Source: an uncultured delta proteobacterium (GTDB taxonomy: Bacteria > Myxococcota_A > UBA9160 > SMWR01). From it: a DNA stretch of 64,000 bases. The position numbers and the translations under genes are program-made. The stretch spans positions 1 to 64,000 of the forward strand of contig CAWHTE010000007.1 in assembly GCA_963832165.1 (NCBI GenBank), given 5' to 3'. Of the stretch, positions 4,487-25,735 are shown one piece after another (the first letter of the stretch is position 1; the number at the start of each line of letters is the position of its first letter). The notes beneath the pieces were generated by a model. It saw nothing but the letters and a program-made list of their open reading frames with translations, had not been told where the DNA came from and did not search any database.

Positions 4487-4504
4487 ATCCCCGGATCTGG
4501 GGAG
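4487..4504. promoter_or_regulatory. 18-bp palindromic motif copy ATCCCCGGATCTGGGGAG
   Basis: Matches consensus ATCCCC-GGATCC-GGGGAT; intergenic, upstream of the hybrid kinase. Confidence 0.65.
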
Positions 4505-4548
4505 AGCGCGCTCTGGAACCGAGGGTTTCGTGGCCGTCCCGGACGAAT

Positions 4549-5197
4549 TCAGCCTTCGAGCTCGGTCAGGCCTTCGCGAACCGCCCACTTCGTCAGATCC
4601 GCCACGCTGTGGATCTCGAGTTTGCGCATGATGCTGCGCCGGTGCGTTTCGACCGTGCTGGTGGCGATGAACAGGCGTTTGCCGATCTGCGGAGACGAGT
4701 GGCCCTCGGCCAGGAGCTGCAGAACTTCCCTCTCGCGATCGGAGAGCACGGACGGGTCCACTCGGCTCCGGGGTCCTTGGAGGGAGGCGTCCACCACCCC
4801 CTTCGTGACCTCCGCGCAGAGATAGCTCTTCCCCTGCCGGGCAGCTTGCAGCGCCTTTCGAAGGTCCGCGGAGGCATTCGCCTTGAGCACGTAGCCGCAC
4901 GCGCCCGCCTCGAGTATGGCGTTCACGTAGCGGCTGTCCGAATGGCTGGAGAGCGCAATCACCTGGACCTTGGGGAACTCGTGTCGGATCTGTCGAGTGG
5001 CATCGATTCCGTTCAGATCCTTCATGCCCACGTCCATGACCACCACGTCGGGTTCGAGCGTGCGCGAGAGCACCACCGCCTCGCGGCCGCTCGAGGCTTC
5101 GCCGACGATCTCGACGCTAGCTTCGCGCCTCGAGGATCGAGCGCAATCCCTCTCGCATCAACACATGATCGTCCACGAGCAGAATACGGGTCGTCAT
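4549..5197 (-). CDS. NarL/FixJ-family response regulator (frameshift near 5125)
   Basis: MTTRILLVDDHVLMREGLRSIL from ATG 5197 (ATGA overlap with the kinase stop), then PDVVVMDV, GYVLK and LuxR HTH LSDREREVLQLLAEG...TVETHRRSIMRKL in another frame. Confidence 0.9.
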
Positions 5198-6423
5198 CGC
5201 GCACCTCCTTGAACATCCGGTAGAGAGGGACGGGTCGGAAGGATGACCGCGACCGTGGTTCCGCTGCCCGGAGTCGTGCGGGTTTCGAGCGACCCGCCCA
5301 GTTGCTCCACCCGTTCGCGCATTGCCAGCAGTCCAAAGCCGTAGCGCTTGGCTCTCGGGGGCATGCCGACACCGCTGTCTTCCACGGCAATCCGCGCCAT
5401 CGCTCCCTCCCGTGAGACCCGGATACGGGCCTCCTTGACGCCCGCATGCTTCACCACGTTGAGGAGAAGCTCGCGAATCGCCCGGTAGAACGTGACGCGC
5501 GCGTTCTCATCGAGCTCCAAGTCGTGCTCCTCGACGATCATCACCGAGAGCCCATGGCTGGTCTCCAGATCCTCTGCGAGCCACTGGACGGCCGCGATCA
5601 GCCCTACATCGTGAAGCAGCGGCGGGCTCAGCTGGAAGCTCAGCGAGGAGATCCGGCGGCGGATCTCCACGAGCAGATCCTCCAGCTCGACCATCCGGGC
5701 GCCCCGCTCCACCTCTCCGGCTTCGCCTAACGCGTGCAGCCTCAGCGACGCCAGCGAGAGCAGTTGGCCGGCATCGTCGTGCAGATCTGCCGCCAGCTTG
5801 CGGCGCTCCCGCTCTTCGGCCAGGGTCGCAGCCGCCACGGCAGCCTGCAATGCGCGCTCGGTCCTGCGCAGCTCCGTCACGTCGATCAGCGCGAGACGGA
5901 TCTCTCTCGGCGTGGCGGCGGTAGCCGGGGCGAACGTGCCCACGATCTGGAGATCGAGCGCGCTTCCGTCGGCCGACACGGTCTCCAGCGTGAGGTCCAT
6001 GCGCGTCCGACCCTCGATCAGATCACGCCGCGCGAGACGCCAGCGATCCTGGCAGTGAGGAGCCACGTACGCCGAAAGCTTTCTCCCGATCAGCTGCGGG
6101 CGCGGAGTCTGCAGGATCAGGGAGATGGCTAGGTTGGCCTCGACGATCATTCCGCTGGAATCGAGCGTCAGGTAGCCGGTGGGAGCCGAATCGTAGAGAC
6201 GGCGAAAACGCTCGTTGGACGACTCTGTTGCCCGCTGCGCCTCCCACAGCTGCTCGTTCTGGATCTTCAGCTCGATCTTGTGCACCTCCAGCTCGTAGAG
6301 GACGGCCTGGATCTCGTCGAGCGTTAGGCTCTTCAGATCGAGGGGCGCCGACTCCGCCATCTGACGCTCGGCGAGCACTCGGAGTGAGTCGGGCGGGCTC
6401 TGCCTGCGGCGCCGGGGACTCAT
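5194..6423 (-). CDS. PAS-domain sensor histidine kinase (HisKA_3, NarX/UhpB type)
   Basis: ERERRKLAADLHDDAGQLL, ELLLNVVKHA, DSGVG, GFGLLAMRERV; N-terminal PAS; no transmembrane helix. Confidence 0.92.
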   Translation of the reverse strand: MSPRRRRQSPPDSLRVLAERQMAESAPLDLKSLTLDEIQAVLYELEVHKIELKIQNEQLWEAQRATESSNERFRRLYDSAPTGYLTLDSSGMIVEANLAISLILQTPRPQLIGRKLSAYVAPHCQDRWRLARRDLIEGRTRMDLTLETVSADGSALDLQIVGTFAPATAATPREIRLALIDVTELRRTERALQAAVAAATLAEERERRKLAADLHDDAGQLLSLASLRLHALGEAGEVERGARMVELEDLLVEIRRRISSLSFQLSPPLLHDVGLIAAVQWLAEDLETSHGLSVMIVEEHDLELDENARVTFYRAIRELLLNVVKHAGVKEARIRVSREGAMARIAVEDSGVGMPPRAKRYGFGLLAMRERVEQLGGSLETRTTPGSGTTVAVILPTRPSLPDVQGGAR

Positions 6424-9400
6424 CGGTGCCTCTCCTCGGGTGCTCCTGACTGCGGCTCGCTCAGATCCTGGATCCCGAGCAAGACGAGGTCGGCGGGCGT
6501 GCCGTCTTGGGGCGACACGGGGCGGGCATTCAAGACCAGCCTACGCCGTCCGAGATGGGGAAACTCGCCCTCCACCTCGAAGTCGTCGAAGCCCGTCGCC
6601 CTCTTGCATGGCTTTCTCCAGGCGCTCGCGCAGTGTGGCGATGATCCACTGATGGCTTCCGAGATCCCCGATCAGTCGACCGTCAGTCTGCGCCGGCTCG
6701 ACCCGAAACGCCCGATAGTAGGCGCGATTCGCGCGAACGACGCGGAGCTCGCGGTCCAGCACCAGGAAGGGCTCGCGCACCGCATCCACGATGCTCTCCG
6801 CCAGCAGGCGGGCCGCCTGGAGACGTTCGCTGTGCTTCGCATCCGTGATGTCGACGAACGTGATGACCACGCCCGCGACGGTGTTTCGAGCGGTGCGATA
6901 GGGCCGGATTCGCACCAGGTACCAGTTGCCGTCGCGAGCGGACGCCTGCTTCTCGGAAGCGTGAAGGGTCTCGCTCACGCTCGCCGCATCCGACAGAAGA
7001 TCGGGATAGTCGACGAGGGTGACCAGGTCGGCGAGCGGACGTCCAATGTCGGTGTCGATCAGGTGCGCGACATTGCGTGCCTGCGGCGTAAAGCGCTTCA
7101 CCCGCAGCTCTTCGTCCAGGAAGATGGTGGCGACCTCGATGTTGTTCATGAGATTGAGCAGGTCGTCGGTTGCCCGCTCGAACGTTTCGATCTTCTCCGT
7201 GAGCTCCGCATTCACGGTATGGAGCTCCTCGTTGAGCGACTGCGTTTCCTCCTTGGCGGTCTGGAGCTCCTCGTTCGTGCTCTGGAGCTCCTCGTTGGCC
7301 GACTGCGCTTCTTCGTTCGCGGAAGCCAGCTCTTCGTTCGCCGCCTGGAGCTCGTCGATGTTGCCCTGCAGGTCGGATCGCGCGTTCTGAAGCTCTTCTT
7401 CCAGCTTCGCCCCACGCCCTGCCCGGTGCCGCTTGGCGATCGGCTCGCTCTTGCGCGCGCGTTTGCGCGGGCTGCGTTCCGCCGGCTCGAACGAGACCAG
7501 GAACAGCCGCGCCGCGACACGCGGCTCGTCGAGCCGCGCCACTTTCAGGTGCAGCGCGAGCCGCTCTCCTCCTCCGACGTCGACGCTGGCGCTTCGCTCT
7601 GCGACCCGCCCGTCCGCCTCGCTCGCCTCGCGAAGCGCCGAGGCGAGCGGTACACGGAGACCTGCGCGCGCCATGTCGACGATGTTCACGTTGACTCGCC
7701 CCGCCGGCAGCTCGAGATAGGCGCCAACGCGGCCATGGATCTGCTGGACCAGGCCACGCTCGTCGACGAGCACGGCCGGCGGACCGAAACGCTCGGCCAG
7801 CGCGCTGCTCAGCGGGCCCGCCAGATCGGGTTTTGCCCCGGCTGGGCGGACGCCCGCCGCGGCGGCGCGGTTCGCGCCGTGCGTCGCCGGCCAGCGAAGC
7901 GTCGGCTGCGGCGCCGTTGCGTCATTTCGCCGGAAGATCTTGAAGTGCCCGTCGAGCGGCGAGAAGAACTCCTCGGAGCCGGCAACGTTCTCGGCTGAAC
8001 CGAGCAGAAGGATTCCGCGAGGATTCAGGCAGTAGTGGAAGGAGCGGAGCAGGCGCCGCTGCGCATTCGGCTCCAGGTAGATGAGCAGATTCCGGCAGGA
8101 CACCAGATCCACGCGCGTGAACGGCGGGTCGTGCAGCGCGTCTTGAACCGCGAAAACCACGAGATCTCGCAGCTCCTTCTTGACGCGAAGAGACTCGTCC
8201 TCTCTCGAGAAGAACCGGGTGAGGCGCCGTTCGCTCACGTCGGCCGCGATGCCCTCGGGATAGCGCCCCGCGCGCGCGACCTGGATCGCTTCGGGGTTGA
8301 GGTCCGTGGCGAATACCTGCACCTCCAGGTCTTTTTTCGACTGTCTCAGGGTCTCGAGCAAGAAGATGATGAGCGAATAGGCCTCTTCACCCGTCGCACA
8401 ACCTGGGACCCAGATCCGCAGCAGGGAACCGTCTTCGCGATGGGTGAGAAGATCGGAAAGCGCGGGCTCGAGCGCCCGGAAGGCTTCCGGGTCGCGGAAG
8501 AAGCTGCTGACTCCGATCAGCCAGTCACGCCAGAGAGCATCGATCTCGTCATCGCTCTGTTCGAGTAGACGCGCGTACGCCTCCATGCCGTCGATGCCGT
8601 GGAGATGCATTCTCCGCTCGATGCGCCGACCCAGCGTCGCGTGCTTGTACTCGGAGAAATCGCGCCCTCCGCGATGACGCATGACCGCGAGGACCCGATC
8701 GAGCTCGTTGCCCGCGATCTCGGGCGCGGCGTCCGCGCGCGCTCGTGAGTCGAGCAGTTTCCGATGGGCAAGCAGACGTGCTGGCATCTCCGCCGGCGAC
8801 AGGACGAAGTCCGCCGCGCGCGCCTCGATCGCACTGACCGGCATTCCGTCGAACTCGGCGGTCTCGGGATCCTGCACGAGCGAGAGACCGGATGCGGCGC
8901 GGATCGCCGCAAGACCGAGCGTGCCATCCGTTCCGGTGCCGGAGAGCAAGATGCCGGCGGCGAAGCTCCCCCTTTCGCGGGCGAGCGCGCGGAAGAAGAG
9001 ATCGATCGGCAGATGCGGAACTCCGCGCAGCCCGACCGGCTCGATGCGCAACATCTCCCCGCGGATCTCCACGTGGTGCCCGCGAGGTTCGACATACACG
9101 TGATTCGGTTCGACGCGCGTCTCCTCGCTGATCTCGCGCACCGGCATCTCGGTGCACTTCGCGAGAATCTCGGGGAGCATGCTGTGACCGGTGGGAGCCT
9201 GGTGGCTCACGACGACGAATGCGATGCCGCAGTCGACGGGGAGCGCCGCGAGGAACTCGCGCAGCGGCGAGAGCGAACCGGCTGAACCCCCGACTCCGAC
9301 GATCAGCGGCCCCGTGTCCGGCGCGTGCGCAGCAGCGGACTCGGTGGGAACGGAGCCCGGGCCGAGCTGCTTCGGCGCGCTCTCACTCGCCTTCTGGGGA

Positions 9401-9462
9401 GCAGGTTTCCGCTTCCTGCCGGAAGTCCGTGGGGCGCGAGTCGTGCCTCTCTTGGCGGCCAT
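6420..9462 (-). CDS. CheB methylesterase-CheR methyltransferase-coiled coil-PAS fusion (frameshift near 6594)
   Basis: CheB GGSAG / VSH / SGTGTDG; CheR IWVPGCATGEEAYS and SCRNLLIY; ELQSTNEELQT coil. Removing one G restores DGFDDFEVE...EERHR* ending at 6420, the frame also seen in the mirror copy. Confidence 0.92.
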
Positions 9463-9631: not shown

Positions 9632-9649
9632 ATCCCCAGATCCGGGTAG
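9632..9649. promoter_or_regulatory. 18-bp palindromic motif copy ATCCCCAGATCCGGGTAG
   Basis: Upstream of cheB/cheR; GATGCT lies 22 nt downstream on the minus strand. Confidence 0.65.
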
Positions 9650-9675
9650 ATCGCGCGCCGAAGGTGTGGACTCGA

Positions 9676-10113
9676 CTAACTTTCTGGCACTTCCGACCAA
9701 TCCGCGACGTGGATCAGATCATCGAGTGCCCAGGGCTTCGGCAGGAAGCGGCTCACTCCCCGCGCGGCGAACTCCGAGCTCCGATCTCCCGCGCTCGTCC
9801 CCACCACTGGCAGAGCGGGCCGTTGCCAGTGCAGGCGTCGCACCAGACCGCCCACGTCGCCGTCGGGCATCTCGAAGTCGAGAATCGCCAGGTCGAGAGC
9901 GGGCTCGAACGCGAGCAGTACGGCGGCCTGGTCGTGAGTACCCGTGCCGATACATACCGCACCGGCGCCGCGCAGCAGGCGCGCCACGGCAAGCCGCATC
10001 GAGAGCTCGGCGTCCACGTAGAGGATGCGCCTGGCGTGGATTCGCTTGTCGTGGCGAGAGCGATGCCGCGCGCTCACCTCGCCCAAGAAATTGAGACCTG
10101 CCCAGCCGCTCAT
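9676..10113 (-). CDS. Single-domain response regulator receiver
   Basis: RILYVD...DLAILDFEMPDGD...VVGTSA...FLPKPW. Confidence 0.8.
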   Translation of the reverse strand: MSGWAGLNFLGEVSARHRSRHDKRIHARRILYVDAELSMRLAVARLLRGAGAVCIGTGTHDQAAVLLAFEPALDLAILDFEMPDGDVGGLVRRLHWQRPALPVVGTSAGDRSSEFAARGVSRFLPKPWALDDLIHVADWSEVPES

Positions 10114-10269
10114 AACCGCTCCTCATCCTGACGCGTCGCAGAGGCGGCCGGTATCGCCGCGCGCGGGTAAATGGCGCGCCAGAAGGGGGGATTCGGACGG
10201 GTCGCCCGCTCGGCCGCGAAACCATGAGCAATGGGTGCGTGCATGGAATCCGCGCTTCCGCCGCCGGGT

Positions 10270-10287
10270 ATCCACGGATCCATGGAT
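10270..10287. promoter_or_regulatory. 18-bp palindromic motif copy ATCCACGGATCCATGGAT
   Basis: Upstream of the BON gene; TACCAT 22 nt downstream (10310). Confidence 0.7.
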
Positions 10288-10378
10288 GTCCGTGCGTCTC
10301 CTGCGTGAATACCATGATCGTTCGAATCGAGTGCGCAGGCCCCACGCGCTGCGCTCGTTCAACGAATCAGGGAGACAT

Positions 10379-11479
10379 ATGTCAGTCATTTTTTTGCTCG
10401 TGCTGGGTTCGGTCGCAGCCATCCTCGTGCGCAATATGATGAATCACTCACTCGTGCTCGCATCCGTTCTAGTTATTGCCAGCTCGAGCTGGGCGATCCC
10501 CGCGAGCGCAGCAGATACGCCCGACGCCTGGATCACCACCAAGGTCAAGATGGCGCTCCTCGTGGCCGAGGACGTGAGCGCCACCGCGGTTCGCGTGGAT
10601 ACGACAGATGGCAAGGTCACGCTGCACGGAACCGTCTCGAGCGCCGACGAGAAGGCTCGCGCCGAGCGCGCGGCGCGAGACGTGAAGGGCGTGCACGAGC
10701 TGCGAAGTCTGCTGCAGGTCGTCGCGAAGACCCGCCAGGAAACGGCCGCCGTGGCCGACGAGGCGCTCTCCGCAGAGGTCGGGAAGCGGCTCGACGCGGA
10801 TCCCGCTCTGCGCGACAGCAAGATCAAGGTGAAGTCGGTGAACCGCGGCGTCGTACTGCTGAGCGGAAAAGCCGGGAACCTCAGCGCACACCTCGACGCA
10901 CTCGAGGTGGCCCGCGCCACGCCCGGCGTGAAGCGCGTCGCCAGCGAGATCGAGAGCCCGGATGCCCTGGCCGACGACGAGATCTGGCGCGAGGCGAAGA
11001 GCGATTCCAAAACGCCCGCAGCGTCGGCGACGAAGGATGCCTGGATCACCACCGACGCGAAGGTCCGGCTGATCGCGAACTCCGAGACTCCCGCGCGCGA
11101 CATCAACGTCGACACGCTGGGAGGCGTCGTGACCCTGTTCGGCACCGTGTCCACGGAGGCTGCGCGGCGCGCGGCCGAGGCGGAGATCAAGAAGATCGAC
11201 GGCGTGAAGAGCGTCGAGAACGATCTCCAGGTCGTACCGCAGGTGTCGGCCGCTGCGGTCGAGCACAAAGACGACCGGGTGAAGGACGCGATCGAGAAGC
11301 GCCTTTCGGCGCGTGGGGAGCTCTCCGACTCGAACATCGACGTGGAGGTGGCGGACGGCGTCGCGCGTCTGACCGGGACGGTCCGCGGTCAGCCCGACCG
11401 GTTGACCGCGCTCACCCTCGCGCGAACCACGGACGGCGTGCGCTCGGTGGTCGGCGATCTCACGGTGAAGGCCCAGTAG
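10379..11479 (+). CDS. Periplasmic four-BON-domain protein (OsmY-like)
   Basis: DAWITTKVK...VDTTDGKVTLHGTV-type unit repeated four times; signal peptide; GGAG RBS. Confidence 0.9.
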   Translation: MSVIFLLVLGSVAAILVRNMMNHSLVLASVLVIASSSWAIPASAADTPDAWITTKVKMALLVAEDVSATAVRVDTTDGKVTLHGTVSSADEKARAERAARDVKGVHELRSLLQVVAKTRQETAAVADEALSAEVGKRLDADPALRDSKIKVKSVNRGVVLLSGKAGNLSAHLDALEVARATPGVKRVASEIESPDALADDEIWREAKSDSKTPAASATKDAWITTDAKVRLIANSETPARDINVDTLGGVVTLFGTVSTEAARRAAEAEIKKIDGVKSVENDLQVVPQVSAAAVEHKDDRVKDAIEKRLSARGELSDSNIDVEVADGVARLTGTVRGQPDRLTALTLARTTDGVRSVVGDLTVKAQ

Positions 11480-11518
11480 GCCGCCACACTCGTGCGGCGG
11501 CAATCAGCAAAGGAGTCC

Positions 11519-11749
11519 ATGATGACAGCTCGCATAACGAGGGCGCTTCTGGCTCTGATGCTCGCAGTCCTGATCTTTGCGGGTTGCGGCACCCTGATCG
11601 GTGCAGGAGTGGGCGCGGGCGTTGGCGCGGCCGTCGGTCACGGAACGGGCTACGGGGCCGGCAAGGGCGCCATGATCGGAACGGGTGTCGGCGCGGCGGC
11701 AGGCGCCATCTATGACATCACCCAGCACGAATCGAACGATGACGACTAG
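11519..11749 (+). CDS. Glycine-zipper lipoprotein
   Basis: AAGGAG RBS; lipobox FAGC; GAGVGAGVGAAVG. Confidence 0.8.
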   Translation: MMTARITRALLALMLAVLIFAGCGTLIGAGVGAGVGAAVGHGTGYGAGKGAMIGTGVGAAAGAIYDITQHESNDDD

Positions 11750-11759
11750 AGGAGGAGTC

Positions 11760-12020
11760 ATGAGGAGGAGTCTCGGTCTCGCAGCGATCGCGCTGACCGT
11801 CGCGCTCGGGCAAGGCATCCTCGCGGCGCCGCGCGCGGCAACGGCAGCGGAGCAGGCTTCCGAGGTCATCGCGGGAGAGGTGACGAAGATCGATCTCGAC
11901 CGGAGTCGCGTGACGGTACGCAGCAGCGACGGCAAGCCCCACGAGTTCGAGGCGTCCGCCGAGACGCTGAAGAGCTTGAAGGTGGGTGACAAAATCGAAG
12001 CGAAGCGCCGACCGGAGTAG
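11760..12020 (+). CDS. Small exported protein, probable OB-fold
   Basis: GGAGG RBS; signal peptide; GEVTKID...LKVGDKI. Confidence 0.75.
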   Translation: MRRSLGLAAIALTVALGQGILAAPRAATAAEQASEVIAGEVTKIDLDRSRVTVRSSDGKPHEFEASAETLKSLKVGDKIEAKRRPE

Positions 12021-12063
12021 GACTCACGGTCGGCACGAAACGAAACATCAGGAGGAATCCAAC

Positions 12064-12231
12064 ATGGCGAGTGGCAAGGCTGATGAAGTGAAGGGTCGGG
12101 TGAAGGAAGCTGCCGGAGTTTTGACCAACGACAAGGGGCTGAAGCGGCAGGGGAAGACCGACCAGGCAGTCGGAAAGATCAAGCAGAAGGCGGAGAAGCT
12201 GGTCGACAAGGCCAAACGCGCTCTCCGCTGA
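12064..12231 (+). CDS. CsbD-family general stress protein
   Basis: DEVKGRVKEAAGVLTNDKGLKRQGKTDQAVGKIK; AGGAGG RBS. Confidence 0.9.
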   Translation: MASGKADEVKGRVKEAAGVLTNDKGLKRQGKTDQAVGKIKQKAEKLVDKAKRALR

Positions 12232-12262
12232 GTCGCGTTCTGGATTGAACTCGGAGGGCATA

Positions 12263-12415
12263 ATGTTCGAAACTATCGCGGTCATCCTGGTCGTCTTGTG
12301 GCTACTGGGTCTGGTTTCCTCCTATACGATGGGTGGGTTCATTCACATCCTGCTGGTCCTTGCGATCGTGGTGGTCCTGCTCCGTGTGGTCCAGGGTCGA
12401 AGGGCTTTGGGATGA
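12263..12415 (+). CDS. 50-aa lmo0937-family membrane protein (absent from the ORF track)
   Basis: MFETIAVILVVLWLLGLVSSYTMGGFIHILLVLAIVVVLLRVVQGRRALG*; GGAGG RBS. Confidence 0.85.
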   Translation: MFETIAVILVVLWLLGLVSSYTMGGFIHILLVLAIVVVLLRVVQGRRALG

Positions 12416-12529
12416 GTCGGGCTTCCTTGCAGGAGGCGACCCGATGAGCGGAATCAAGATGGTGCGTTCCTGCTGATGCTGCCCAAGCCGAGCTAGCTCC
12501 GAACCGCCGTTCCGTCGCTAGTGGTGACG

Positions 12530-14083
12530 ATGGGGAATCGGGATATTCGCGAGATCCTCGCCTACCACGAGGCGACGAAACACAGCGCGCACAGCGTCCG
12601 GACGAGCCACTACGCGCTCGACTGGGAGAACCAGCCGCTTCCGTTCAAGATCTATCCGGAGCTCGAACGGATCCCTCTCCCGCGAGACTTTCCCGAGTCT
12701 GCCATTCCTGCGTTGGCCGCGATTACGAGCGGTTCGTCCGCAGGGAACGGGTCCGGCGATGCGCGCAGCCCGGACCTCCCGGCACTCGCGCGCGTGCTCC
12801 AGCTCTCGGCCGGGATCACCAAGCGCAAGCGTCACTCTGGTGGAGAGATCTATCTCCGTGCCTACGCCAATACCGGCGCGCTCCACCACGTCGATCTGTA
12901 CCTCGTGACGGGCGACCTCGGGGCGCTCCCGGCGGGCGCCTATCACTTCAGCCCGCACGACTTCGCGTTGAGGCGGCTGCGAGAAGGGGACTGGCGCGGC
13001 GTGCTGATCGAGGCATCGGGCGGTGATCCCGCGGTCGCGCGGGCGCCGGTCGTGCTGGTGAGCGCCTCGACCTACTGGCGCAACAGCTGGAAGTATCAGG
13101 CGCGGGCCTGGCGGCACTGCTTCTGGGACGCGGGCACTCTCCACGCCAACCTGCTCGCCGTCGCCGGGACCGAGGTGCTCGCACCGCGAATCGTGCTCGG
13201 CTGGGCGGATGGGCCAGTGGAGCGCCTGCTAGGTCTCGACCCGCGACGCGAGGGCGCGCTCACCTGCGTGCCGCTCGGGCATGCGCCGCGACCGGCACCA
13301 TCGGTTTCCGTCCCGACGGAACTCGAGCTCACAACCCGATCCCTCTCGCGAAAGGAGATCGACTTCCCGGAGATCCGGTGCGCGCACGCCGCCTCGTCGC
13401 TTGCCGACGGCGACGAGGCGCGGACCTGGAAGGGGAGTCTCTCCGAACGCAAGGAGCCCGCGCCGACGGGAGCGCTCACGCGACTGCGCCTCGACTCTTC
13501 GCAGGCCGACGAGTCGCTCGATCGGGTGATCTGGCGGCGGGGATCGACCCGAGCCTTCGACCGCACGCGATCGATCTCGTTCGAGGCCCTCTCGCGAGCG
13601 CTCGAGTGTGCGGCCGCAGACATACCCGCGGATTTTCTGGAGCCGCCGGAACGGGCGCTCCTGGATCTCTATCTGATCGTGAACGCGGTCGAAGGCCTCG
13701 CTCCCGGTAGCTACACGTACCGGCGCGACGAGCAATCGCTCGAGCTGCTGCGCGAGGGGAGCTTTCGGAACGAAGCTGGACATCTCGCGCTCGACCAGCC
13801 GCTGGCCGCCGACGCGGCCGTCAACGTCTACAGTCTGGTGGACCTGCCGCGCGTCCTCGATCGGTTCGGCAATCGCGGCTATCGCGCCGCCCAGCTCGAG
13901 GGGGGAATCACGGGCGGCCGTCTGTATCTCGCGGCCTACGCGCAGGGGTTCGGCGCCTCGGGGCTCACCTTCTACGACGACGAGGTGACGGAGTTCTTCG
14001 CGCCGCACGCCGCTGGCAAGAGCGTGATGTTCCTCGTCGCGCTCGGCTACGCGGACCGCAGGGCGTTGGGTCTCTTGCGCTGA
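12530..14083 (+). CDS. SagB/ThcOx-family dehydrogenase (tandem nitroreductase folds)
   Basis: YHEATKHS, WRNSWKYQARAWRHCFWDAG, RRGSTRAF, GASGLTFYDDEV. Confidence 0.88.
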   Translation: MGNRDIREILAYHEATKHSAHSVRTSHYALDWENQPLPFKIYPELERIPLPRDFPESAIPALAAITSGSSAGNGSGDARSPDLPALARVLQLSAGITKRKRHSGGEIYLRAYANTGALHHVDLYLVTGDLGALPAGAYHFSPHDFALRRLREGDWRGVLIEASGGDPAVARAPVVLVSASTYWRNSWKYQARAWRHCFWDAGTLHANLLAVAGTEVLAPRIVLGWADGPVERLLGLDPRREGALTCVPLGHAPRPAPSVSVPTELELTTRSLSRKEIDFPEIRCAHAASSLADGDEARTWKGSLSERKEPAPTGALTRLRLDSSQADESLDRVIWRRGSTRAFDRTRSISFEALSRALECAAADIPADFLEPPERALLDLYLIVNAVEGLAPGSYTYRRDEQSLELLREGSFRNEAGHLALDQPLAADAAVNVYSLVDLPRVLDRFGNRGYRAAQLEGGITGGRLYLAAYAQGFGASGLTFYDDEVTEFFAPHAAGKSVMFLVALGYADRRALGLLR

Positions 14084-14619
14084 GGCGGGCCCGCTCCCGC
14101 AGTTTCCATGGTGTCGTCGCCTGTGATCGTGCCAAGCAGCATCCCTGCGAACAACGACGACCAACCGGTCGGGAAGGCTCGTTTCGGGACTGGGGACTCC
14201 GCGTTATTCGGATACGCGTAGAGTGGAGCGGTCCTTCGCGGGAGCCTTACGCGTCAGCACGGGTGGTCGACGACGAAAACGTGAATGCCCATCGGGTAAA
14301 AGGAGATGACCCAGAAGCCACAGAACCGCGAGGTTGATTGCGATCGCTTCGAGCATGCTTCGTCCTTTGGATGGACCTCATCCACCTGCCGTCACTCTTA
14401 TCGGGTTCGATTTTCCCAATCCTTCGAACCTACCGCGATGCGGGATCCGTTCATATCGTCGACACCACGGAGAACGCGGACCAAAGGCGAGGATTCGCGC
14501 TCCTCGGCGCATCCTGGCCGGGGCGCGCGTCCCCTTGAGTGCGGTCAAACGGTGCGTATATAGAGCCCGGGCCCGGAGACCGCCGGGCTTCGAGGAGGGA
14601 TTCCCCAGGTGCGTACCCT

Positions 14620-15388: not shown

Positions 15389-15507
15389 GAATTCCTCCCG
15401 GCGCGTTCCGAGCACGTACGCACGCCGGTCGCTGTGGTCGGCAGCCTGAAGAACTTCCCGCCGCGCGGCAAGTCATCGCCGCGAAATCAGTTCCTTCGGT
15501 TCGCAAT

Positions 15508-15525
15508 TCCCCCGGATCTCGGGAT
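15508..15525. promoter_or_regulatory. 18-bp palindromic motif copy TCCCCCGGATCTCGGGAT
   Basis: Upstream of the 15589 operon; TAGCGT 22 nt downstream (15548). Confidence 0.7.
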
Positions 15526-15588
15526 ACCAACCGTCTCCTGCTCCAAGTAGCGTGCATCTGCCCCAGCGCTGTACCCGAGGGAAGAGCG

Positions 15589-15960
15589 ATGTCGAGCCTC
15601 TCGAGCTCCCAAGTGTATGACGGTGATCCCGTCGAAGACGGCGAGGATCCGAGCTTCGGAAACGCGCTCGAGCGGGTATACGGTGCCGGGCAAGAACTGA
15701 TCGTTCGCCGCATCGACCTGCTCGTCGAGGAGCTCGCCGCGCAGGGCCGGAATCTCCTCGCTGCTGCCGTCGGCACGATTTTCGGAGCGATGGCACTGCT
15801 GGTGGGCTGGATCTTCGTCGTAGCGGGCGTGGTCGACGCGATCGATGACTACGTTCCGCGTTTCGCGGCCGAGATCGTCGTCGGCATCCTCCATGTCGGA
15901 GTCGGCGCCGCGATCGCCATTGCGCGGCGGCAGCAGACCGCGGAGAAGGCCTCTACATGA
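15589..15960 (+). CDS. Two-TM YqjE/holin-X-like membrane protein
   Basis: Helical N-terminus then two hydrophobic helices; first gene of an ATGA-coupled operon. Confidence 0.7.
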   Translation: MSSLSSSQVYDGDPVEDGEDPSFGNALERVYGAGQELIVRRIDLLVEELAAQGRNLLAAAVGTIFGAMALLVGWIFVVAGVVDAIDDYVPRFAAEIVVGILHVGVGAAIAIARRQQTAEKAST

Positions 15961-16160
15961 GCTCTTCCGCCGATCCGCGACTGGACACGCTCCGTGAGCG
16001 CGTCGACGAGCAGGCGGTGGAGCTCCACGACGCAGTGCAGGAGTTCGAGGATGTGGCCCGCCGGGCGATCGATGTGCGGCACTGGATCCGATCCAGGCCC
16101 TTGCTCTGGGCCGCTGGGGCATTCCTCGTGGGTGCATGGCTCGGAGGACGAAAGGCATGA
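15957..16160 (+). CDS. Small tail-anchored protein (YqjK/DUF3618-like)
   Basis: Coiled N-terminus then WIRSRPLLWAAGAFLVGAWLG; ATGA overlap. Confidence 0.7.
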   Translation: MSSSADPRLDTLRERVDEQAVELHDAVQEFEDVARRAIDVRHWIRSRPLLWAAGAFLVGAWLGGRKA

Positions 16161-16375
16161 TCGACGCGCAAAGCAACGAAGTGAGAGGCAACGGAGCGGA
16201 CGAGATCAGCGCGGTCTCCGCTGCGGAACTCGAGGGCCTCTTGCCGCAGAGTGTGCACGCGCTGGTCGAGCAGGAGGCTCGCGTGCGCGACTTCATCCGA
16301 TCGCATCCGCTGCCGGTCGTTCTCGGCGCCCTCGCGCTGGGTTTTGCTGTCGCGAGATGGATGCGGGAGGACTGA
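16157..16375 (+). CDS. ElaB/YqjD-like tail-anchored protein
   Basis: VRDFIRSHPLPVVLGALALGFAVAR; ATGA overlap. Confidence 0.75.
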   Translation: MIDAQSNEVRGNGADEISAVSAAELEGLLPQSVHALVEQEARVRDFIRSHPLPVVLGALALGFAVARWMRED

Positions 16376-16409
16376 GCGCATGTCCGCGGCGTCAGCGACT
16401 TGGGATTGA

Positions 16410-16724
16410 ATGGCCTCCCACGAGCCTCACGAAGAGGAGGCCGTGCCGAGAACGCTCCGCTCGGACCTCGACAGGCTCCTCTCGCGGGTCGCGTCGGCGA
16501 AGGACGGCGCGCTGCGTCTGCTGGAAGAAGCCGTTGGGGCGGAGCCCTTCGTCGCGACCGCTGCCGCGGCCGGACTCGGGTTCGTGTTGGGCGGAGGCTT
16601 GCCTCGCGGGACGATCGCGCTGCTGTTCGGGACCGGTACCCGCGCCGCTGCGGCCTGGCTCGGCGAAGAGATCCGGCTGCGAGCTGCAGCAAACGATGAC
16701 TCTGCAACGGAGGACGACCGATGA
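16410..16724 (+). CDS. Small membrane-anchored hypothetical protein
   Basis: EPFVATAAAAGLGFVLGGGL; overlaps the next start. Confidence 0.65.
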   Translation: MASHEPHEEEAVPRTLRSDLDRLLSRVASAKDGALRLLEEAVGAEPFVATAAAAGLGFVLGGGLPRGTIALLFGTGTRAAAAWLGEEIRLRAAANDDSATEDDR

Positions 16725-17065
16725 ACGACGCGAACGAGAAAACTCAAATGAACAGGAGACACACGATCATGACCATCGCCAATCTTGCGAGCCACGCGCT
16801 TGTGAGCCACGCGCCGAAAGCCTATGAGCTGCTGCACCGCATCGGCCTCGAGCGCCGTCGATCGCGAGCGATTCGCGTCGCGTCGTGCGCGGGATGGATC
16901 GGAGTCGGTATGGCCGTAGGTAGCGGACTCACAGTGCTCTTGACGCCCCGAAGCGGTCCGGAGATGCGCGAACGTCTCGGCGAACGCGCCAAGCGTGCGC
17001 GAGACTACGTGGTGACCAACGGCATCGAGCCGACCGGTAGAGCGTCGGCCGCGCAAGCTCCTTAG
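16721..17065 (+). CDS. YtxH-like protein
   Basis: GVGMAVGSGLTVLLTPRSGPEMRERL. Confidence 0.75.
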   Translation: MNDANEKTQMNRRHTIMTIANLASHALVSHAPKAYELLHRIGLERRRSRAIRVASCAGWIGVGMAVGSGLTVLLTPRSGPEMRERLGERAKRARDYVVTNGIEPTGRASAAQAP

Positions 17066-17128
17066 TCGTCGGAAACTCGCCCACTCGATCTGGTGCTGTG
17101 GAGGAAATCAGCGGCTTCGGTGCGCGAT

Positions 17129-17146
17129 TCCCATGGATACCGGGAT
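17129..17146. promoter_or_regulatory. 18-bp palindromic motif copy TCCCATGGATACCGGGAT
   Basis: TAGGGT 22 nt downstream (17169); flanks resemble those of the 15508 site (gaaatcag...ttcggt). Confidence 0.7.
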
Positions 17147-17265
17147 ACCGGCGGTCTCGCCTTCGGCATAGGGTTCAATGACGAGGCCTGATGGCCAGAA
17201 ACAAGAAGTGTGTGACGTATTTCGTTTCACCCTCTGTCGTTTCACCCTGTTAGGAGGGAAGCACC

Positions 17266-17802
17266 ATGATGAATCATTCACCGCTGCTGGCAGCTATCGC
17301 GCTGTTCGCGCTCGCTTGCACGGGTCCGACGGGCCCGCGTGGCAATACGGGCCCGCCGGGTCCCACCGGCATGACCGGCGCCCAGGGGGTCACCGGCCTG
17401 ACGGGCACACAGGGCCAGCCCGGCATGACCTCGCCGGGTCCGGCTGCCTCGGAGACAGGCTGGATCACGCTCCGGGACATCATGTTCAATTTCGACACGG
17501 CGGACATTCGGCCGTCCGAGATGAACAAGATCTCCGACGTCGCTGGTTACCTCAAGCAGAATCCGTCCGTCCGCGTCGGGATCGATGGCTCCACGGATCT
17601 GTCGCGCGGCGTCAACCAGTACAACGTGGACCTGAGCGCGCGGCGTATCGCCAATGTGCGGGACGCGCTGATCCGAACCGGAATTTCCGGTGACCGAATC
17701 GAGACGGGCCGCTTCGGCGCGAAACGGGGCGAGTGCGATGACTCGACCGAGACGTGCTCGAAGCGCGACGGGCGCGTCGAGGTAATGGCTCGCAGCCACT
17801 AG
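17266..17802 (+). CDS. OmpA-family lipoprotein with collagen-like Gly-X-Y repeat
   Basis: Lipobox ALAC; GPTGPRGNTGPPGPT...; FNFDTADI, YNVDLSARR, DGRVEV. Confidence 0.88.
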   Translation: MMNHSPLLAAIALFALACTGPTGPRGNTGPPGPTGMTGAQGVTGLTGTQGQPGMTSPGPAASETGWITLRDIMFNFDTADIRPSEMNKISDVAGYLKQNPSVRVGIDGSTDLSRGVNQYNVDLSARRIANVRDALIRTGISGDRIETGRFGAKRGECDDSTETCSKRDGRVEVMARSH

Positions 17803-17913
17803 AGGTACGGCGCTACCGGCACAGCTCCGGCGAGCTGGAGAGGACACCGGTCCGTTGCGGGCCGAGTGTCCTCCGGCTTGGCTGCAGGGAATTCCACGGT
17901 CTAGCCACTCGGT

Positions 17914-17931
17914 ATACCCGGATCCGGGGAT
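17914..17931. promoter_or_regulatory. 18-bp palindromic motif copy ATACCCGGATCCGGGGAT
   Basis: Upstream of the ECF sigma gene; TAGCGT 23 nt downstream (17955). Confidence 0.75.
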
Positions 17932-18091
17932 ACTGCCCGTCTCCCCAACCGGACTAGCGTTCCTGTCGTCGATGCGAAAAGGAACGCCCCCATGCTGCGT
18001 CCGATGTGGCGACGCTTGATCGATCCAGTTGAAGTCAACGCAGCCTGGCGACCGGTCCCCTCCTGCTCGTGCTAGCGACCGTGCGCAGCCG

Positions 18092-18652
18092 ATGAAGCTA
18101 GCGGACTCCTCGCGGTGGGCGCAGGACGATGCGCTCGTGATTCGACTGCGGGCGGGTGACGAGGAGGCCTACGCCGAGCTGTACCGCCGCGTGCATCCCC
18201 GTGTGTTCAGATTCGCGCTCCGTCGGCTCGGCGACCCGACCGAGGCCGAGGACGTCGCCCAGGACGTCTTCCTCCAGGTGTACCGTTCGATCGACCGGTA
18301 CGAGGGCCGCTCCAGCCTGCTGACCTGGATCTTCGGCATCGCTCGCCACACGACCCTCAGCCGCTACTCGCGCCGACCCCCCAAGATGGCGCCGCTCGAC
18401 GAAGCCGGCGCCCTTGCCGCGCCGGTTGCGTCGATCGAGGACAGCATCGACGCCTCACGAATCTGGGAGCGCTGCACCCGATTCCTGCAGCGCAACATGT
18501 CCGCGACCACGCGCGACATATTCCATCTGCGCTACTCGCGCGGCCGTTCCGTCGCGGCCATCGCGCGTGAGACGGGCAAGAGCGAAGGCGCTGTCAAGCT
18601 CAGGCTGATGCGCACGCGTCGGATCCTCGGCACGTTGGCACTGGGCGCGTGA
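18092..18652 (+). CDS. ECF sigma-70 factor
   Basis: EAEDVAQDVF, LLTWIFGIARH, region 4 IARETGKSEGAVKLRLMR; start could be 18029. Confidence 0.88.
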   Translation: MKLADSSRWAQDDALVIRLRAGDEEAYAELYRRVHPRVFRFALRRLGDPTEAEDVAQDVFLQVYRSIDRYEGRSSLLTWIFGIARHTTLSRYSRRPPKMAPLDEAGALAAPVASIEDSIDASRIWERCTRFLQRNMSATTRDIFHLRYSRGRSVAAIARETGKSEGAVKLRLMRTRRILGTLALGA

Positions 18653-18679
18653 GGCTCCTCCGCACACTCGGCGCGCGAA

Positions 18680-18697
18680 TCCCCAGGATCCGGGGAT
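18680..18697. promoter_or_regulatory. 18-bp palindromic motif copy TCCCCAGGATCCGGGGAT
   Basis: Upstream of the dps remnant; TAGCGT 22 nt downstream (18720). Confidence 0.75.
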
Positions 18698-18734
18698 CCC
18701 GCACGCTCGCGCCTCGGGGTAGCGTGGCGGATGA

Positions 18735-18920
18735 ATGAACTCCACGAAGAACGCGCGCGCCGCGAACGACGAGTGCGGGCAGATCGGTGATCAGACCAGT
18801 GCCGCCGACGCCTTCACTGAGATATCGCGCGGCCTCGACAAGCATCTCTGGTTCGTGGAGGCCTACCTCACTGGATCGCACGAGCACAGACTTGCAATTA
18901 CGCCGGAGAACCATGAGTGA
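18735..18920 (+). pseudogene. dps: C-terminal remnant of a Dps ferritin-like protein
   Basis: GDQTSAADAFTEISRGLDKHLWFVEAYL matches the last Dps helix; the N-terminal helices are absent. Confidence 0.7.
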
Positions 18921-19050
18921 CCGGTCACCCAAGTCGAAGCAGCGCGACCATACTCAGAAAAAAAGCGCCAAGGACAAGGCCGCTGCTGACGCGAGATCCA
19001 AGCAGGACAAGCAAGGCCTGTTCAAGAACACCAAGACGACCACGAAATAG
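18913..19050 (+). CDS. 45-aa basic hydrophilic small protein
   Basis: GGAG RBS; MSDRSPKSKQRDHTQKKSAKDKAAADARSKQDKQGLFKNTKTTTK*. Confidence 0.6.
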   Translation: MSDRSPKSKQRDHTQKKSAKDKAAADARSKQDKQGLFKNTKTTTK

Positions 19051-19061
19051 CTCGCGCCTCG

Positions 19062-20065: not shown

Positions 20066-22318
20066 ATGCGCGCTGATTTCGAAGCGATTCTGCGCGAGGC
20101 CAACACCGCGTCCGATCTGGACGAAGTCATGGCCATCATCGCCCGCCGGGTCAAGGGCGCCCTCCCCGTCGATGCCTGCGTGGTCTGTCTGATCGACGCG
20201 ACGAGCAATCAGCTCGTCCGGGTTTCGTCGAGCGGCGCCGACGTGGCGCTTCCAATACCCGCTCCTCTGGCCGGCCTGCTGAGCCTGATCATCGAACGCC
20301 GAGGGCTGGTCGTTCTCCAGAACCGGACGGCCCGCTCAACCAACCACTCTGCTCCTCCTGAACACGACACCGCCGGATACGACGCCTTCCTCGGCATGCC
20401 GCTGATCCATGATCACCGAATCGTGGGAGTGCTGGCGGCTTGGAAGGCGACAGGCGAATTCGGTCGCGACGAGGTGCCCTTCTTCGTCACGATCGCGCCA
20501 CCACTGGCGGCGATCATCCACGAGCACGCGGCCGCCGGCGAAGTTGCGAGCCTGCTGAGCGGCGGCATCCAGGAGACAGTCCACGTCCAGGGTGTAATGG
20601 CGGCCGGCGGGCTCGCGGTCGGAACAGCGGCGTTGCTCGACCCGCTGGCCACCTTGGAGTCGGTGCCGGATCGGGGCGTTGACGACATCGTTTCGGAGGA
20701 GAAGGCCTTTCGAGCCGCGGTCGCAGCTGCTCAGGCGGAAGTGCGGACCAGCAGCGAACGGCTGGCCGGCGCCATCCCGAGCGAGGTACGCGAGATCTTC
20801 GACGTCTACGTGATGTTGCTCGGAAGTGACAAACTGGTACGAGAGACGGTCGAACGAATCCGCGGGGGGAATTGGGCGCCGGGTGCGCTCCGTGACACCA
20901 TCGCGGATCAGGCCCGACCATTCGACCGCGCTGACGACCCTTACCTGCGCGCGCGCGGCGAAGATGTTCGCCAGATCGGCCAGCGGATCCTCGTCCACCT
21001 CCACTCGCAGATCGAACTGGAAAGATCGTATCCGGAGCGATGCATCCTGGTGGGAGACACGATCAGCATCACGGAGATAGCTGCGGTGCCCGTGAGCCAA
21101 CTCGCCGGCATCGTCTGTCGGCACGGCTCGGCCCTTTCCCACATGGCCGTATTGGCACGCGCCCTGGAAATTCCGGCGGTCGTGAGCCTCTCGTCTCTAC
21201 CCGCGAGCCTGCTGGAGGGCCGCACGATCGTCGTCGACGGTGACCAAGGTCGGGTCTACATCCAACCTCCGCGCGCTGCCCTCGATGCGTTCGAGCGGAG
21301 CATTGCAGAGCGCCAGGCAGCCTCCCAACGGCTCGGGGCACTACGGGACCTGCCGGCTGAAACATTGGACGGGGTCCGGCTGCCGCTGTACGCCAATATC
21401 GGACTGGTCTCCGACCTCGAGGCGGCTCTGGCCAGCGGAGCCGAAGGCGTCGGCCTCTACCGCACGGAATACCAGTTCCTGCTGCGTGACGCGTTCCCGG
21501 TCGAGAGCGAGCAGTACGAGGTATATCGAGAGCTGTTGCAAGCGTTCGCACCGCGACCGGTCACTGTGCGCACCCTCGATGTGGGTGGCGACAAGATCCT
21601 TCCGTATTTCCCGGTGAAGGAGGACAACCCATTTCTCGGTTGTCGCGGAATTCGATTCTCGCTCGAGCATCCCGAGATCTTCATGATCCAGCTGCGCGCG
21701 ATGCTGCGGGCAAATGCGGGTGTCGAGAACCTGCAGGTGCTCTTCCCGATGGTCACGAGGATCGATGAACTCGACCAGGCGCTCGAGTTGTTGGCGCGAG
21801 CGCATCGCGAGCTGCTGGACGAAGGCGAGGCGACGGCGATGCCGAGGACCGGCGTGATGATCGAGGTTCCCTCCGCCGTCTTCTCGGCCCGATCCTTCGC
21901 GGAGCGCGTGGATCTTCTCTCTATCGGTACGAACGACCTCTCCCAGTACATTCTGGCTGTCGATCGAAGCAATGAGCGAGTGAGTACTCCGTACGACAGT
22001 CTGCATCCCGCCGTTCTCGATGCGGTCGTCGAGGTGGTCCAAAAGGCTCACGAACGGTCCACTCCAGTGAGTGTATGCGGTGAGCTCGCCGGTGATCCTG
22101 CCGGCGCGCTGGTGTTGCTCGGCGCCGGAGTCGACGAGCTGAGCATGAGCCCTGCGGGCTTATCGAGGGTGAAACTCGTGATTCGCAGCTTCACCATGGA
22201 TCAGGCGCGGGCGCTGCTCGAAGCGGCACTGGATGAAGATGACGGACGTGGTGTTCACGAGCTGCTGAATGCGGCGCTCGATCGGGCAGGAGTCTTGGCT
22301 CTGGGTTCTCCCCTCTGA
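20066..22318 (+). CDS. ptsP: GAF-containing phosphoenolpyruvate-protein phosphotransferase (EI-Ntr)
   Basis: N-terminal GAF; SHMAVLARAL, GVGLYRTE, RTLDVGGDK, EDNPFLGCRGIR, SIGTNDL, VCGE. Confidence 0.93.
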   Translation: MRADFEAILREANTASDLDEVMAIIARRVKGALPVDACVVCLIDATSNQLVRVSSSGADVALPIPAPLAGLLSLIIERRGLVVLQNRTARSTNHSAPPEHDTAGYDAFLGMPLIHDHRIVGVLAAWKATGEFGRDEVPFFVTIAPPLAAIIHEHAAAGEVASLLSGGIQETVHVQGVMAAGGLAVGTAALLDPLATLESVPDRGVDDIVSEEKAFRAAVAAAQAEVRTSSERLAGAIPSEVREIFDVYVMLLGSDKLVRETVERIRGGNWAPGALRDTIADQARPFDRADDPYLRARGEDVRQIGQRILVHLHSQIELERSYPERCILVGDTISITEIAAVPVSQLAGIVCRHGSALSHMAVLARALEIPAVVSLSSLPASLLEGRTIVVDGDQGRVYIQPPRAALDAFERSIAERQAASQRLGALRDLPAETLDGVRLPLYANIGLVSDLEAALASGAEGVGLYRTEYQFLLRDAFPVESEQYEVYRELLQAFAPRPVTVRTLDVGGDKILPYFPVKEDNPFLGCRGIRFSLEHPEIFMIQLRAMLRANAGVENLQVLFPMVTRIDELDQALELLARAHRELLDEGEATAMPRTGVMIEVPSAVFSARSFAERVDLLSIGTNDLSQYILAVDRSNERVSTPYDSLHPAVLDAVVEVVQKAHERSTPVSVCGELAGDPAGALVLLGAGVDELSMSPAGLSRVKLVIRSFTMDQARALLEAALDEDDGRGVHELLNAALDRAGVLALGSPL

Positions 22319-24019: not shown

Positions 24020-24029
24020 CCTTGACGAG

Positions 24030-25106: not shown

Positions 25107-25113
25107 GGGAACC

Positions 25114-25617
25114 GTGCCCAGCTACGACGATCGCGAACGGGAGGCGCTCGAGACCTATCGGGCGTACGTGAACCAGCGCACGCGAGCGCAGCGCGGTGAG
25201 GTGCCGTGGTCCTCGATCGGCGACTTCTTCACCGAAGACTGCGTCTTCATCGATCCGGCCTGGGGCCGCATCGAGGGCCGCGCCAAGATGGCCGACTTCT
25301 TCGACTGGTCGATAATCGGACTCGAAGGCTGGGAATTCCCCGAGATGTGGACGATGGCCGACGGGGACCGCATCGTGTCGTTCTGGTGGAACCGGCTGCC
25401 CGGCGCCGATGCCGATGGACTCCCATATCAGGCCCCGGCGTTGTCGATCCTCCATTACGCGGGCAACGGGAAGTTCGACTACGAGCTCGACCTGATGAAC
25501 GTCGCGGAAGTCGGCCAGGTAATGGCGCGCTCCGGCTGGACGCCCGGCAAGGGCTTCCGGATCCCCGACGCGAAGCCCGATCGCGACCCGACGCCGCCGC
25601 GGCTCGCCACGCCCTGA
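25114..25617 (+). CDS. SnoaL/NTF2-like protein
   Basis: FFTEDCVFIDPAWGRIEGR, LHYAGNGKF. Confidence 0.85.
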   Translation: MPSYDDREREALETYRAYVNQRTRAQRGEVPWSSIGDFFTEDCVFIDPAWGRIEGRAKMADFFDWSIIGLEGWEFPEMWTMADGDRIVSFWWNRLPGADADGLPYQAPALSILHYAGNGKFDYELDLMNVAEVGQVMARSGWTPGKGFRIPDAKPDRDPTPPRLATP

Positions 25618-25717
25618 CGCCCTCCGTGGCCTAGAAGAACGGTGCCCGGGGCGGGGCCCTATTCACCCGAAGCGCGGCCTGGGTCAGGGGGCACACTCCA
25701 CGACATCGTCGGTCGGT

Positions 25718-25735
25718 ATCCCCGGATCAGGGGAT
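25718..25735. promoter_or_regulatory. 18-bp palindromic motif copy ATCCCCGGATCAGGGGAT
   Basis: 17/18 match to consensus; 42 nt upstream of the desaturase ATG. Confidence 0.72.

Follow-up and report, generated by a model that had tools for sequence, protein, structure and literature searches.

A tandem palindromic element as candidate operator of a NarL/FixJ-type regulator and of general-stress-type genes in an uncultured delta proteobacterium

The window analyzed here is a stretch of 64,000 nucleotides (nt) from an uncultured delta proteobacterium, positions 1 to 64,000 of the forward strand of contig CAWHTE010000007.1 (assembly GCA_963832165.1, hereafter genome G000). Its first part carries an operon for a CheB-CheR fusion protein with PAS domains (CheBR), a PAS-HisKA_3 kinase and a NarL/FixJ-family response regulator, together with genes of the kind found in general-stress regulons. 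Copies of an 18-base-pair (bp) palindrome with the consensus ATCCCCGGATCCGGGGAT stand before the operon and before these genes (Table 1), and the regulator is proposed as the protein that reads them. Eight copies of the palindrome, six of them followed by a -10-like hexamer, had been listed in an original prediction made from this DNA; all eight are present at the coordinates it gave, and the six hexamers are as it described when checked by their position after each palindrome. The eight are not the full set, because two degenerate sites at 10153 and 14455 were overlooked. The leave-one-out matrix scores of the eight sites range from 12.4 to 24.8 bits; the copy at 17129 has more than five mismatches to the consensus, yet still reaches 12.4 bits. 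Seven matches with three or fewer mismatches occur in the window, whereas shuffles contain 0.03 on average and none of 100 reached 7, although one of the seven (2099) mirrors the 4487 site and is not independent.

Table 1. Operators, regulatory genes and predicted targets in the window (positions are those of the window; mismatches are counted against ATCCCCGGATCCGGGGAT)
Position	Strand	Feature	Remarks
2099..2116	+	Mirror of the 4487 site	Inside inverted duplicate 1-3298; not independent
3568..4437	-	HisKA-HATPase kinase, predicted target	Domain search
4487..4526	-	Operator	Palindrome 4487-4504 (2 mismatches), secondary site 4509-4526; faces HisKA kinase; -10-like GATCCT at 4458-4463 (+24)
4549..5197	-	NarL/FixJ-family response regulator, REC and LuxR helix-turn-helix (HTH)	Pfam; NCBIfam on intact C11 copy; helix IATSTVETHRR
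5194..6360	-	PAS-HisKA_3-HATPase kinase, predicted cognate	Stop overlaps regulator start (ATGA)
6541..9462	-	CheB-CheR-coiled coil-PAS-PAS fusion, predicted input module	Domain search
9632..9671	-	Operator before cheBR-kinase-regulator operon	Palindrome 9632-9649 (3 mismatches), secondary site 9654-9671; GATGCT 9604-9609; predicted autoregulatory site
9676..10113	-	Single-domain receiver protein, predicted target	Recurs beside motif in relatives
10153..10194	-	Degenerate operator before single receiver gene	Strong secondary, weak primary site; CAGGAT at +23; 12.3 bits, bipartite matrix; weak
10248..10315	+	Operator and TACCAT -10, before 4xBON (OsmY-like) operon	Palindrome at 10270 (3 mismatches)
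10379..14083	+	Predicted target operon: 4xBON OsmY-like, glycine-zipper lipoprotein, small exported, CsbD-like, lmo0937-family, SagB-like nitroreductase	
14455..14496	-	Degenerate operator	TAGGTT at +23; 8.8 bits, bipartite matrix; kept at C11:375127; weak
15486..15553	+	Operator and TAGCGT -10 (+23), before holin-X/YqjE-like to YtxH operon	Palindrome at 15508 (4 mismatches)
15589..17065	+	Predicted target operon: PF07332 holin-X (YqjE-like), three small membrane proteins, YtxH-like protein	
17107..17174	+	Operator and TAGGGT -10, before OmpA-domain lipoprotein	Palindrome at 17129
17266..17802	+	OmpA-domain lipoprotein with collagen-like linker, predicted target	
17892..17960	+	Operator and TAGCGT -10 (+24), before ECF (extracytoplasmic function) sigma factor	Palindrome at 17914 (1 mismatch)
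18092..18652	+	ECF sigma factor, predicted target, probably not the reader	
18658..18725	+	Operator and TAGCGT -10 (+23), before Dps-like remnant and 45-amino-acid basic protein	Palindrome at 18680 (3 mismatches)
18735..19050	+	Dps-like C-terminal remnant and short basic open reading frame	No family hit for remnant
25696..25735	+	Operator before fatty-acid desaturase gene	Palindrome at 25718 (1 mismatch); CTGAAT at +23
25778..26743	+	Fatty-acid desaturase-family gene	

A matrix built from the eight window sites was run over the whole genome, with three order-5 Markov simulations of the genome as background. It gave 20 matches of at least 20 bits, 7 of them training sites, against 1, 0 and 0 in the simulations, and the enrichment that the original prediction had proposed to check is therefore present. 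Thirteen of these matches lie outside the window island; 12 of the 13 are intergenic in a genome that is 85% coding by our gene caller, and 11 fall within 342-375 kb of contig C11. The region C11:342000-375500 corresponds to the window island as a rearranged paralogue; its long blocks are mostly 81-90% identical, and it carries 14 operators, one of which (C11:369094) is paralogous to the 9632 site. Its additional genes encode FtsH, an encapsulin with ferritin-like cargo, superoxide dismutase, cardiolipin synthase, an AI-2E transporter and isocitrate dehydrogenase. Contig C4 carries a third cheBR-kinase-regulator operon, with one site upstream and no ECF gene beside it. Later matrices were based on the 23 resulting G000 sites (8 in the window, 14 on C11 and 1 on C4).

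The alignment of 54 oriented sites from G000 and its relatives, which form 40 clusters after paralogous promoters are merged, gave a directional element that reads gAATCCnCa..TTCgg..gcgaT, palindrome, spacer and -10-like hexamer; orientation was set by hand from neighboring genes and flanks. The 18-bp palindrome as originally described is real, and its central GATC is the best-conserved part, but it is only half of this element, and a second site 22 bp upstream had been missed. The upstream block looks like a further copy of the palindrome that begins 22 bp before the first and matches well in its left half but poorly in its right, so that a primary and a secondary site stand in tandem and in helical phase with a 22-bp period. 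An upstream matrix trained on G000 gives the upstream flank a higher score than the opposite one in 25 of the 31 sites of other genomes, and ATC[CA] occurs at -22 in 19 of the 31 non-G000 sites versus none of the 31 opposite flanks. AWTCM followed by a gap and the core matched 11 times in the island at a gap of 18, and zero times or once at each of six other gaps. Downstream, 30 of the 40 de-replicated promoters have NAnnnT beginning at +23 or +24, compared with a mean of 1.65 and a maximum of 4 at control offsets and with 6/40 on the opposite flank; the strict form TAnnnT begins there in 13/40. If the hexamer spans -12 to -7, the palindrome would be centered at -43.5 (or -44.5) and the second site at -65.5. 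The activator-type geometry of the original prediction, with the site near -44, agrees with this predicted center; the site abuts the -35 position and keeps a fixed distance to the -10-like hexamer, as in class II-type sigma-70 promoters.

Among the scanned proteins of the island, two are DNA-binding proteins: the REC-LuxR regulator and the ECF sigma factor. The receiver domain of the regulator (PF00072) has D53, S81 and K103 invariant in all seven aligned copies; the acidic pocket DDH lies before the frameshift in the window copy and is intact in the other six. Its C-terminal GerE/LuxR HTH domain matches PF00196 with an E-value of 3.7e-20, and the match to PDB 1a04 has an E-value of 1.7e-33. 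The NCBIfam NarL model gives 143.5 bits against a cut-off of 250, which places the protein outside the E. coli-type NarL/NarP equivalog, and the second-best NCBIfam match, PRK15369, which we take to be the SsrB model, gives 173.9 against 242. The adjacent kinase has a HisKA_3 domain (PF07730) barely above the cut-off and an HATPase domain, and its best NCBIfam matches (UhpB, MctS and NarQ) are all under their cut-offs. In the CheBR fusion, the residues that we take as the CheB Ser/His/Asp and CheR catalytic motifs look intact, the coiled coil has EEL(Q/A)S repeats, and the C-terminus is probably frameshifted near 6597. The gene at 3568-4437, previously labeled a hybrid kinase, shows only HisKA and HATPase domains.

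Which protein reads the motif was addressed by a search of 193 genomes of the order, in which the regulator profile matches 28 at an E-value of 1e-75 or better. A strict bipartite pattern is present in 9 of the 13 genomes with a regulator at 1e-110 or better (G000 excluded), in 0/5 genomes of the next tier, in 1/9 of the last tier and in 7/165 without a regulator match. When 94 regulator loci were scored at 18 bits or more with a matrix from G000 only, all 14 positive loci were among the 20 with the helix AT[AST]T, and none of the 74 others was positive; a scripted regular expression gave 13/19 and 1/75, the odd one being locus L021 with ATAT. Cases that had not been seen before behaved similarly. 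Genome G117, found through CheBR alone, has an 81%-identical, frameshifted regulator and 10 sites of at least 13 bits, 7 of them of at least 18 bits, within 36 kb; contig C264 of G072 has three sites of at least 13 bits upstream of a CheBR with 77% identity and of a regulator truncated by the contig end; and G188 has three sites. At the CheBR loci L189 and L190, which lack this regulator, no sites were found. Within the order, the motif is conserved in four families or more. The earlier assignment of the regulator encoded at 4549-5197 as the reader is thereby supported at the level of sequence, since the motif appears to follow the regulator clade and its recognition helix rather than the ECF sigma factor or the types of target. 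Its autoregulation, also claimed earlier, fits the site before the operon in all three G000 copies and in G005, G006, L018, G072 and G117, but no such site was seen in L019, L021, L022 and G036. Other patterns were rejected as genome screens: the consensus at two or fewer mismatches misses G005 and G006, which have sites by matrix, while HYMCNNRGATCYNNGKAT (47 of 60 genomes) and a loose bipartite pattern (135 of 193) are uninformative. A reversed-pattern control was too lenient because GATC is common.

A sister branch of the regulator has a similar operon and the helix ATRTVEQHRRR or close variants, but lacks the G000 motif, with best scores of only -1.6 to 12.4 bits under the G000 matrix. CGTAGTTC occurs 23-84 nt after the regulator gene in 5 of 8 loci with Arg in the helix versus 0/86 others (background 0.013 per 450 nt), and 5 of 7 exact matches of ATTGCGTAGTTC lie within about 1.2 kb after a sister regulator gene; at one mismatch ATTGCGTAGTTC is near background as a screen, so that only exact matches are informative. 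The loci are G028:C24:409725 and 410826, G038:C69:6248 and 7366, G072:C118:8283, L030:10665 and L153. The five Arg loci are close kin and therefore amount to about one evolutionary event. By eye, an AGATC-containing block about 22 bp upstream of the motif gives a tandem look, and the branch may represent a second undescribed regulon with the motif ATTGCGTAGTTC, apparently tandem at about 22 bp. In our alignment, the varying helix position corresponds to Lys179 of DosR, one of three base-contacting residues (PMC4082495; this and the other papers cited by PMC number are drawn on through their available sections). The Ser/Thr helix with ATCCCCGGA and the Arg helix with TTGCGTAGT form a natural pair for the study of a LuxR-family recognition code.

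On this evidence, we assign a probability of roughly 0.8 to the reading in which the NarL/FixJ regulator binds a two-site element whose strong half is the palindrome, and would thereby activate its own operon and genes of general-stress type. A number of observations weigh against it. The regulator gene of the window is frameshifted as assembled, and so is the kinase gene on C11. The strict pattern misses 4 of the 13 genomes with the closest regulators and all five of the next tier, occurs in the 7 of 165 without a detected regulator, and was picked after the loci of 8 of the 9 positive genomes had been viewed, hence not blind. Six of the 20 signature-helix loci lack a site of 18 bits, and in the Planctomycetota locus L048, whose helix carries Lys, a core site of 17.7 bits follows the regulator. 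All positives belong to one order and are clustered on a quick tree of the regulator loci (4 changes), so that kin are not independent. The hand-set orientation biases the -10 counts favorably, two C11 sites score better reversed, and the site at 25718 lacks a canonical -10. Finally, genomes G210 and G100, two of these seven, have convincing sites, and no close regulator or CheBR was found in them. These two genomes, and the restriction of all carriers to one order, would be expected if another, unlinked transcription factor inherited with the lineage reads the site and the NarL-type operon is one target among others. However, G210 and G100 are only 78-79% complete, the regulator-less genomes of the same genus (G001, 95% complete, G002, G003 and G004) have no strict site, and the motif changes along with the regulator helix in the sister branch; we regard an unlinked reader as improbable.

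The element could also be the promoter of the island ECF sigma factor or of another alternative sigma factor, given that an ECF gene with a site is found in both islands and that several G000 sites share a GTCTC element at +8. Against this, the best match of the ECF protein outside G000 among the 193 genomes is 57% identical and belongs to G001, whose locus has no site; identity in motif-bearing genomes is at most 46% among the matches listed; the C4 operon has its site without an ECF gene; and a dyad 22 nt before TAnnnT is unlike the -35/-10 pairs known for ECF sigma factors. A sigma-factor promoter thus seems highly improbable, and much the same holds for a dispersed repeat, an RNA hairpin or a duplicated promoter cassette without a protein reader. 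Part of the promoters are indeed paralogous, as the reduction of 54 sites to 40 clusters indicates, and near-identical multi-copy elements exist in G036 and G209. Paralogous promoters, however, retain 94% identity in the palindrome versus 48-51% (ungapped) in the outer flanks, unlike repetitive extragenic palindromes or miniature inverted-repeat elements, and the distance to the -10 hexamer is fixed; none of nine arm pairs covaries beyond shuffles and Rfam gave no match in window positions 1-30000, which argues against an RNA hairpin. We give equally little credence to repression by the regulator or to a regulon with another purpose, such as resting-cell formation. In favor of such readings, the palindrome reaches with its final base up to the -35 position, and the targets were annotated by family resemblance only. 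On the other hand, a site at -43.5 without a consensus -35 fits known activation by NarL and DevR (PMC10853779, PMC3177182), and csbD is a direct general-stress (EcfG) target in Sphingopyxis (PMC7083833).

Under the preferred reading, the PAS-HisKA_3 kinase would phosphorylate the regulator, a dimer of which could occupy the palindrome near -43.5, with cooperative binding of another dimer to the same helix face near -65.5. These dimers may then recruit RNA polymerase with the housekeeping sigma factor to promoters that lack a consensus -35, probably by way of the C-terminal domain of the alpha subunit (alpha-CTD), as E. coli NarL does at yeaR. The 9632 site would provide positive feedback, and the ECF sigma factor, the receiver protein and the HisKA kinase, as well as an NtrC-like activator in some relatives, could form a second tier of output. 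The kinds of target suggest a stress or growth-arrest signal as input. In the most speculative step, CheBR may set the activity of the kinase, and might do so by reversibly methylating glutamates in the EEL(Q/A)S repeats of its coiled coil, or by methylating the kinase; since four genes with chemoreceptor domains exist elsewhere in the genome, a receptor is also possible as a substrate.

The predicted system resembles several known ones in part. DevR (DosR) of M. tuberculosis likewise governs its own operon and has a stress- or dormancy-type output. In its class I promoters, a NarL-family regulator acts on 18-bp palindromic boxes, a conserved primary one and a degenerate secondary one, which are arranged in tandem and in helical phase; in tgs1-Rv3131 the boxes lie at -42.5 and -63.5, and both sites are needed in phase (PMC3177182). 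In contrast, the DevR half-site is GGGACT (PMC3177182) and that of the present motif is ATCCCCGGA, so that no Dev box is present; the period is 21 bp in DevR and 22 bp here, other residues occupy the helix, and a CheBR-linked PAS kinase stands in place of heme sensors. At E. coli yeaR, the NarL dimer site is centered at -43.5, just upstream of the -35 position, in a non-canonical class II arrangement with alpha-CTD contact and no sigma-4 contact (PMC10853779). The motif found here can likewise be parsed as 7-2-7 with T(A/C)CC half-sites, and the REC-LuxR fold is the same, whereas the base-reading Lys188/Val189/Lys192 of NarL are replaced by Glu/Thr/Arg (ETHRR), a NarX-type nitrate sensor is absent and the targets differ. 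Salmonella SsrB is also a NarL-family regulator with an 18-bp degenerate palindrome, but its 4-bp spacer is degenerate and its distance to the start site is not fixed (PMC2837388), in contrast to the conserved central GATC and fixed distance observed here.

With respect to output, the names dps, YqjE and ElaB given to island genes are taken here as resemblances only, which pass no family cut-off; the BON and lmo0937 families pass theirs, and the CsbD-like and YtxH matches fall below. The targets recall the RpoS, SigB and EcfG/PhyR regulons in their CsbD-like, OsmY-like BON, lmo0937-family and Dps-like proteins, encapsulin cargo, superoxide dismutase and cardiolipin synthase. The difference is that a predicted response-regulator activator would act on housekeeping-type promoters, with no dedicated stress sigma factor. 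A region of the same genome, C1:479500-494000, has similar kinds of target (BON, CsbD-like, a YqjE-like operon, encapsulin and cardiolipin synthase); here sigma-54-type -24/-12 boxes (TGGCAC-N5-TTGC) precede six genes, two NtrC-like activators are encoded alongside, and a scan with the bipartite matrix found no site of 8 bits or more. Similar output genes thus occur under different control within one genome. On the input side, CheBR shares CheB and CheR motifs, a coiled coil and PAS domains with other CheB-CheR fusions, and differs in its tie to a defined regulator and operator. Such cheBR fusions have been counted in Geobacter (PMC8396549), and nothing on them was found in the available text of PMC2577667 and PMC3447774. 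The literature searched, which leaves most subscription journals and supplements outside, contained no description of the motif or circuit and no output or regulon for a CheB-CheR-PAS-type fusion.

In this sense the motif, regulon and input module would be new, and the architecture of a two-component regulator with a tandem operator near -43.5 is familiar. A wider proposal, which we advance tentatively and hold to be possible rather than probable, is that of a portable general-stress switch, patchily distributed in this Myxococcota-related order. In it, a chemotaxis-derived CheBR that works without a chemoreceptor array would tune a cytoplasmic kinase and a NarL-type activator, the latter taking the place of a stress sigma factor; the same gene set would be wired to sigma-54 and NtrC elsewhere in the genome, and sister branches would have recoded the operator and one helix residue. 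If true, the system would offer the first defined transcriptional output, and a reporter, for the widespread CheBR fusions, and it suggests how stress-protection genes may be controlled in a largely uncultured lineage without a recognized stress sigma factor.

The start of the contig (C7) probably contains assembly faults. Window positions 1-3298 form an inverted copy of 3312-6587 with 91% identity, 62 gap openings and broken reading frames, probably an artefact of long-read foldback; around the turn near 3300 the DNA is non-coding and differs from its flanks. The regulator gene, originally predicted as one gene, is not a single open frame, owing to a 1-base insertion near 5130 that is missing from the C11, G005 and G006 copies and from one contig of DNA run X1. 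A second indel near 6597 is missing from three contigs each of runs X1 and X5. As both are close to the contig end, they are likely assembly errors, and alternatively the window regulator may be a real pseudogene; intact regulator copies exist on C11 and C4. An apparent kinase-regulator fusion on C11 was rejected, because a frameshift in the kinase mimics it and the genes are separate in relatives. The four DNA runs yielded only short contigs of 85-99%-identical relatives, from which no footprint of the motif could be obtained; in two contigs of run X1, the relatives' similarity to the window stops at 4487. No RNA run was among those listed, which carries no information on expression.

Further observations concern related elements and genes. 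In several relatives the operator precedes a gene for an NtrC-like activator (L098:11003, L024:8078, L027:7242 and G030:C18:57939), which suggests a cascade from the NarL-type regulator to sigma-54. The near-identical elements of G036 and G209 comprise the operator and downstream sequence on different contigs (L119, L129, L130, L133, L023:3149 and 4277) and are possibly a spreading promoter cassette or a small mobile unit. A Planctomycetota branch of the regulator (L031, L032, L035, L037, L041, L046, L048 and L057) has an lmo0937-family neighbor in four cases and one palindrome-like site at each of two loci, and may contain a third variant of the motif. At C11:446494-448497, within an open frame of 1249 codons, lies a fourth CheBR fusion that is more distant and has no operator close by. 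In the window, a GAF-domain phosphoenolpyruvate phosphotransferase (PtsP/enzyme I-Ntr-like, 20066-22318) lies within the span of the regulon without an operator. A small TIR-like protein is encoded at 33029-33523 in a stretch of lower GC content adjoining a chaperonin gene (31238-32881); its match to TIR_2 is below the cut-off and that to ThsB_TIR is at the cut-off.

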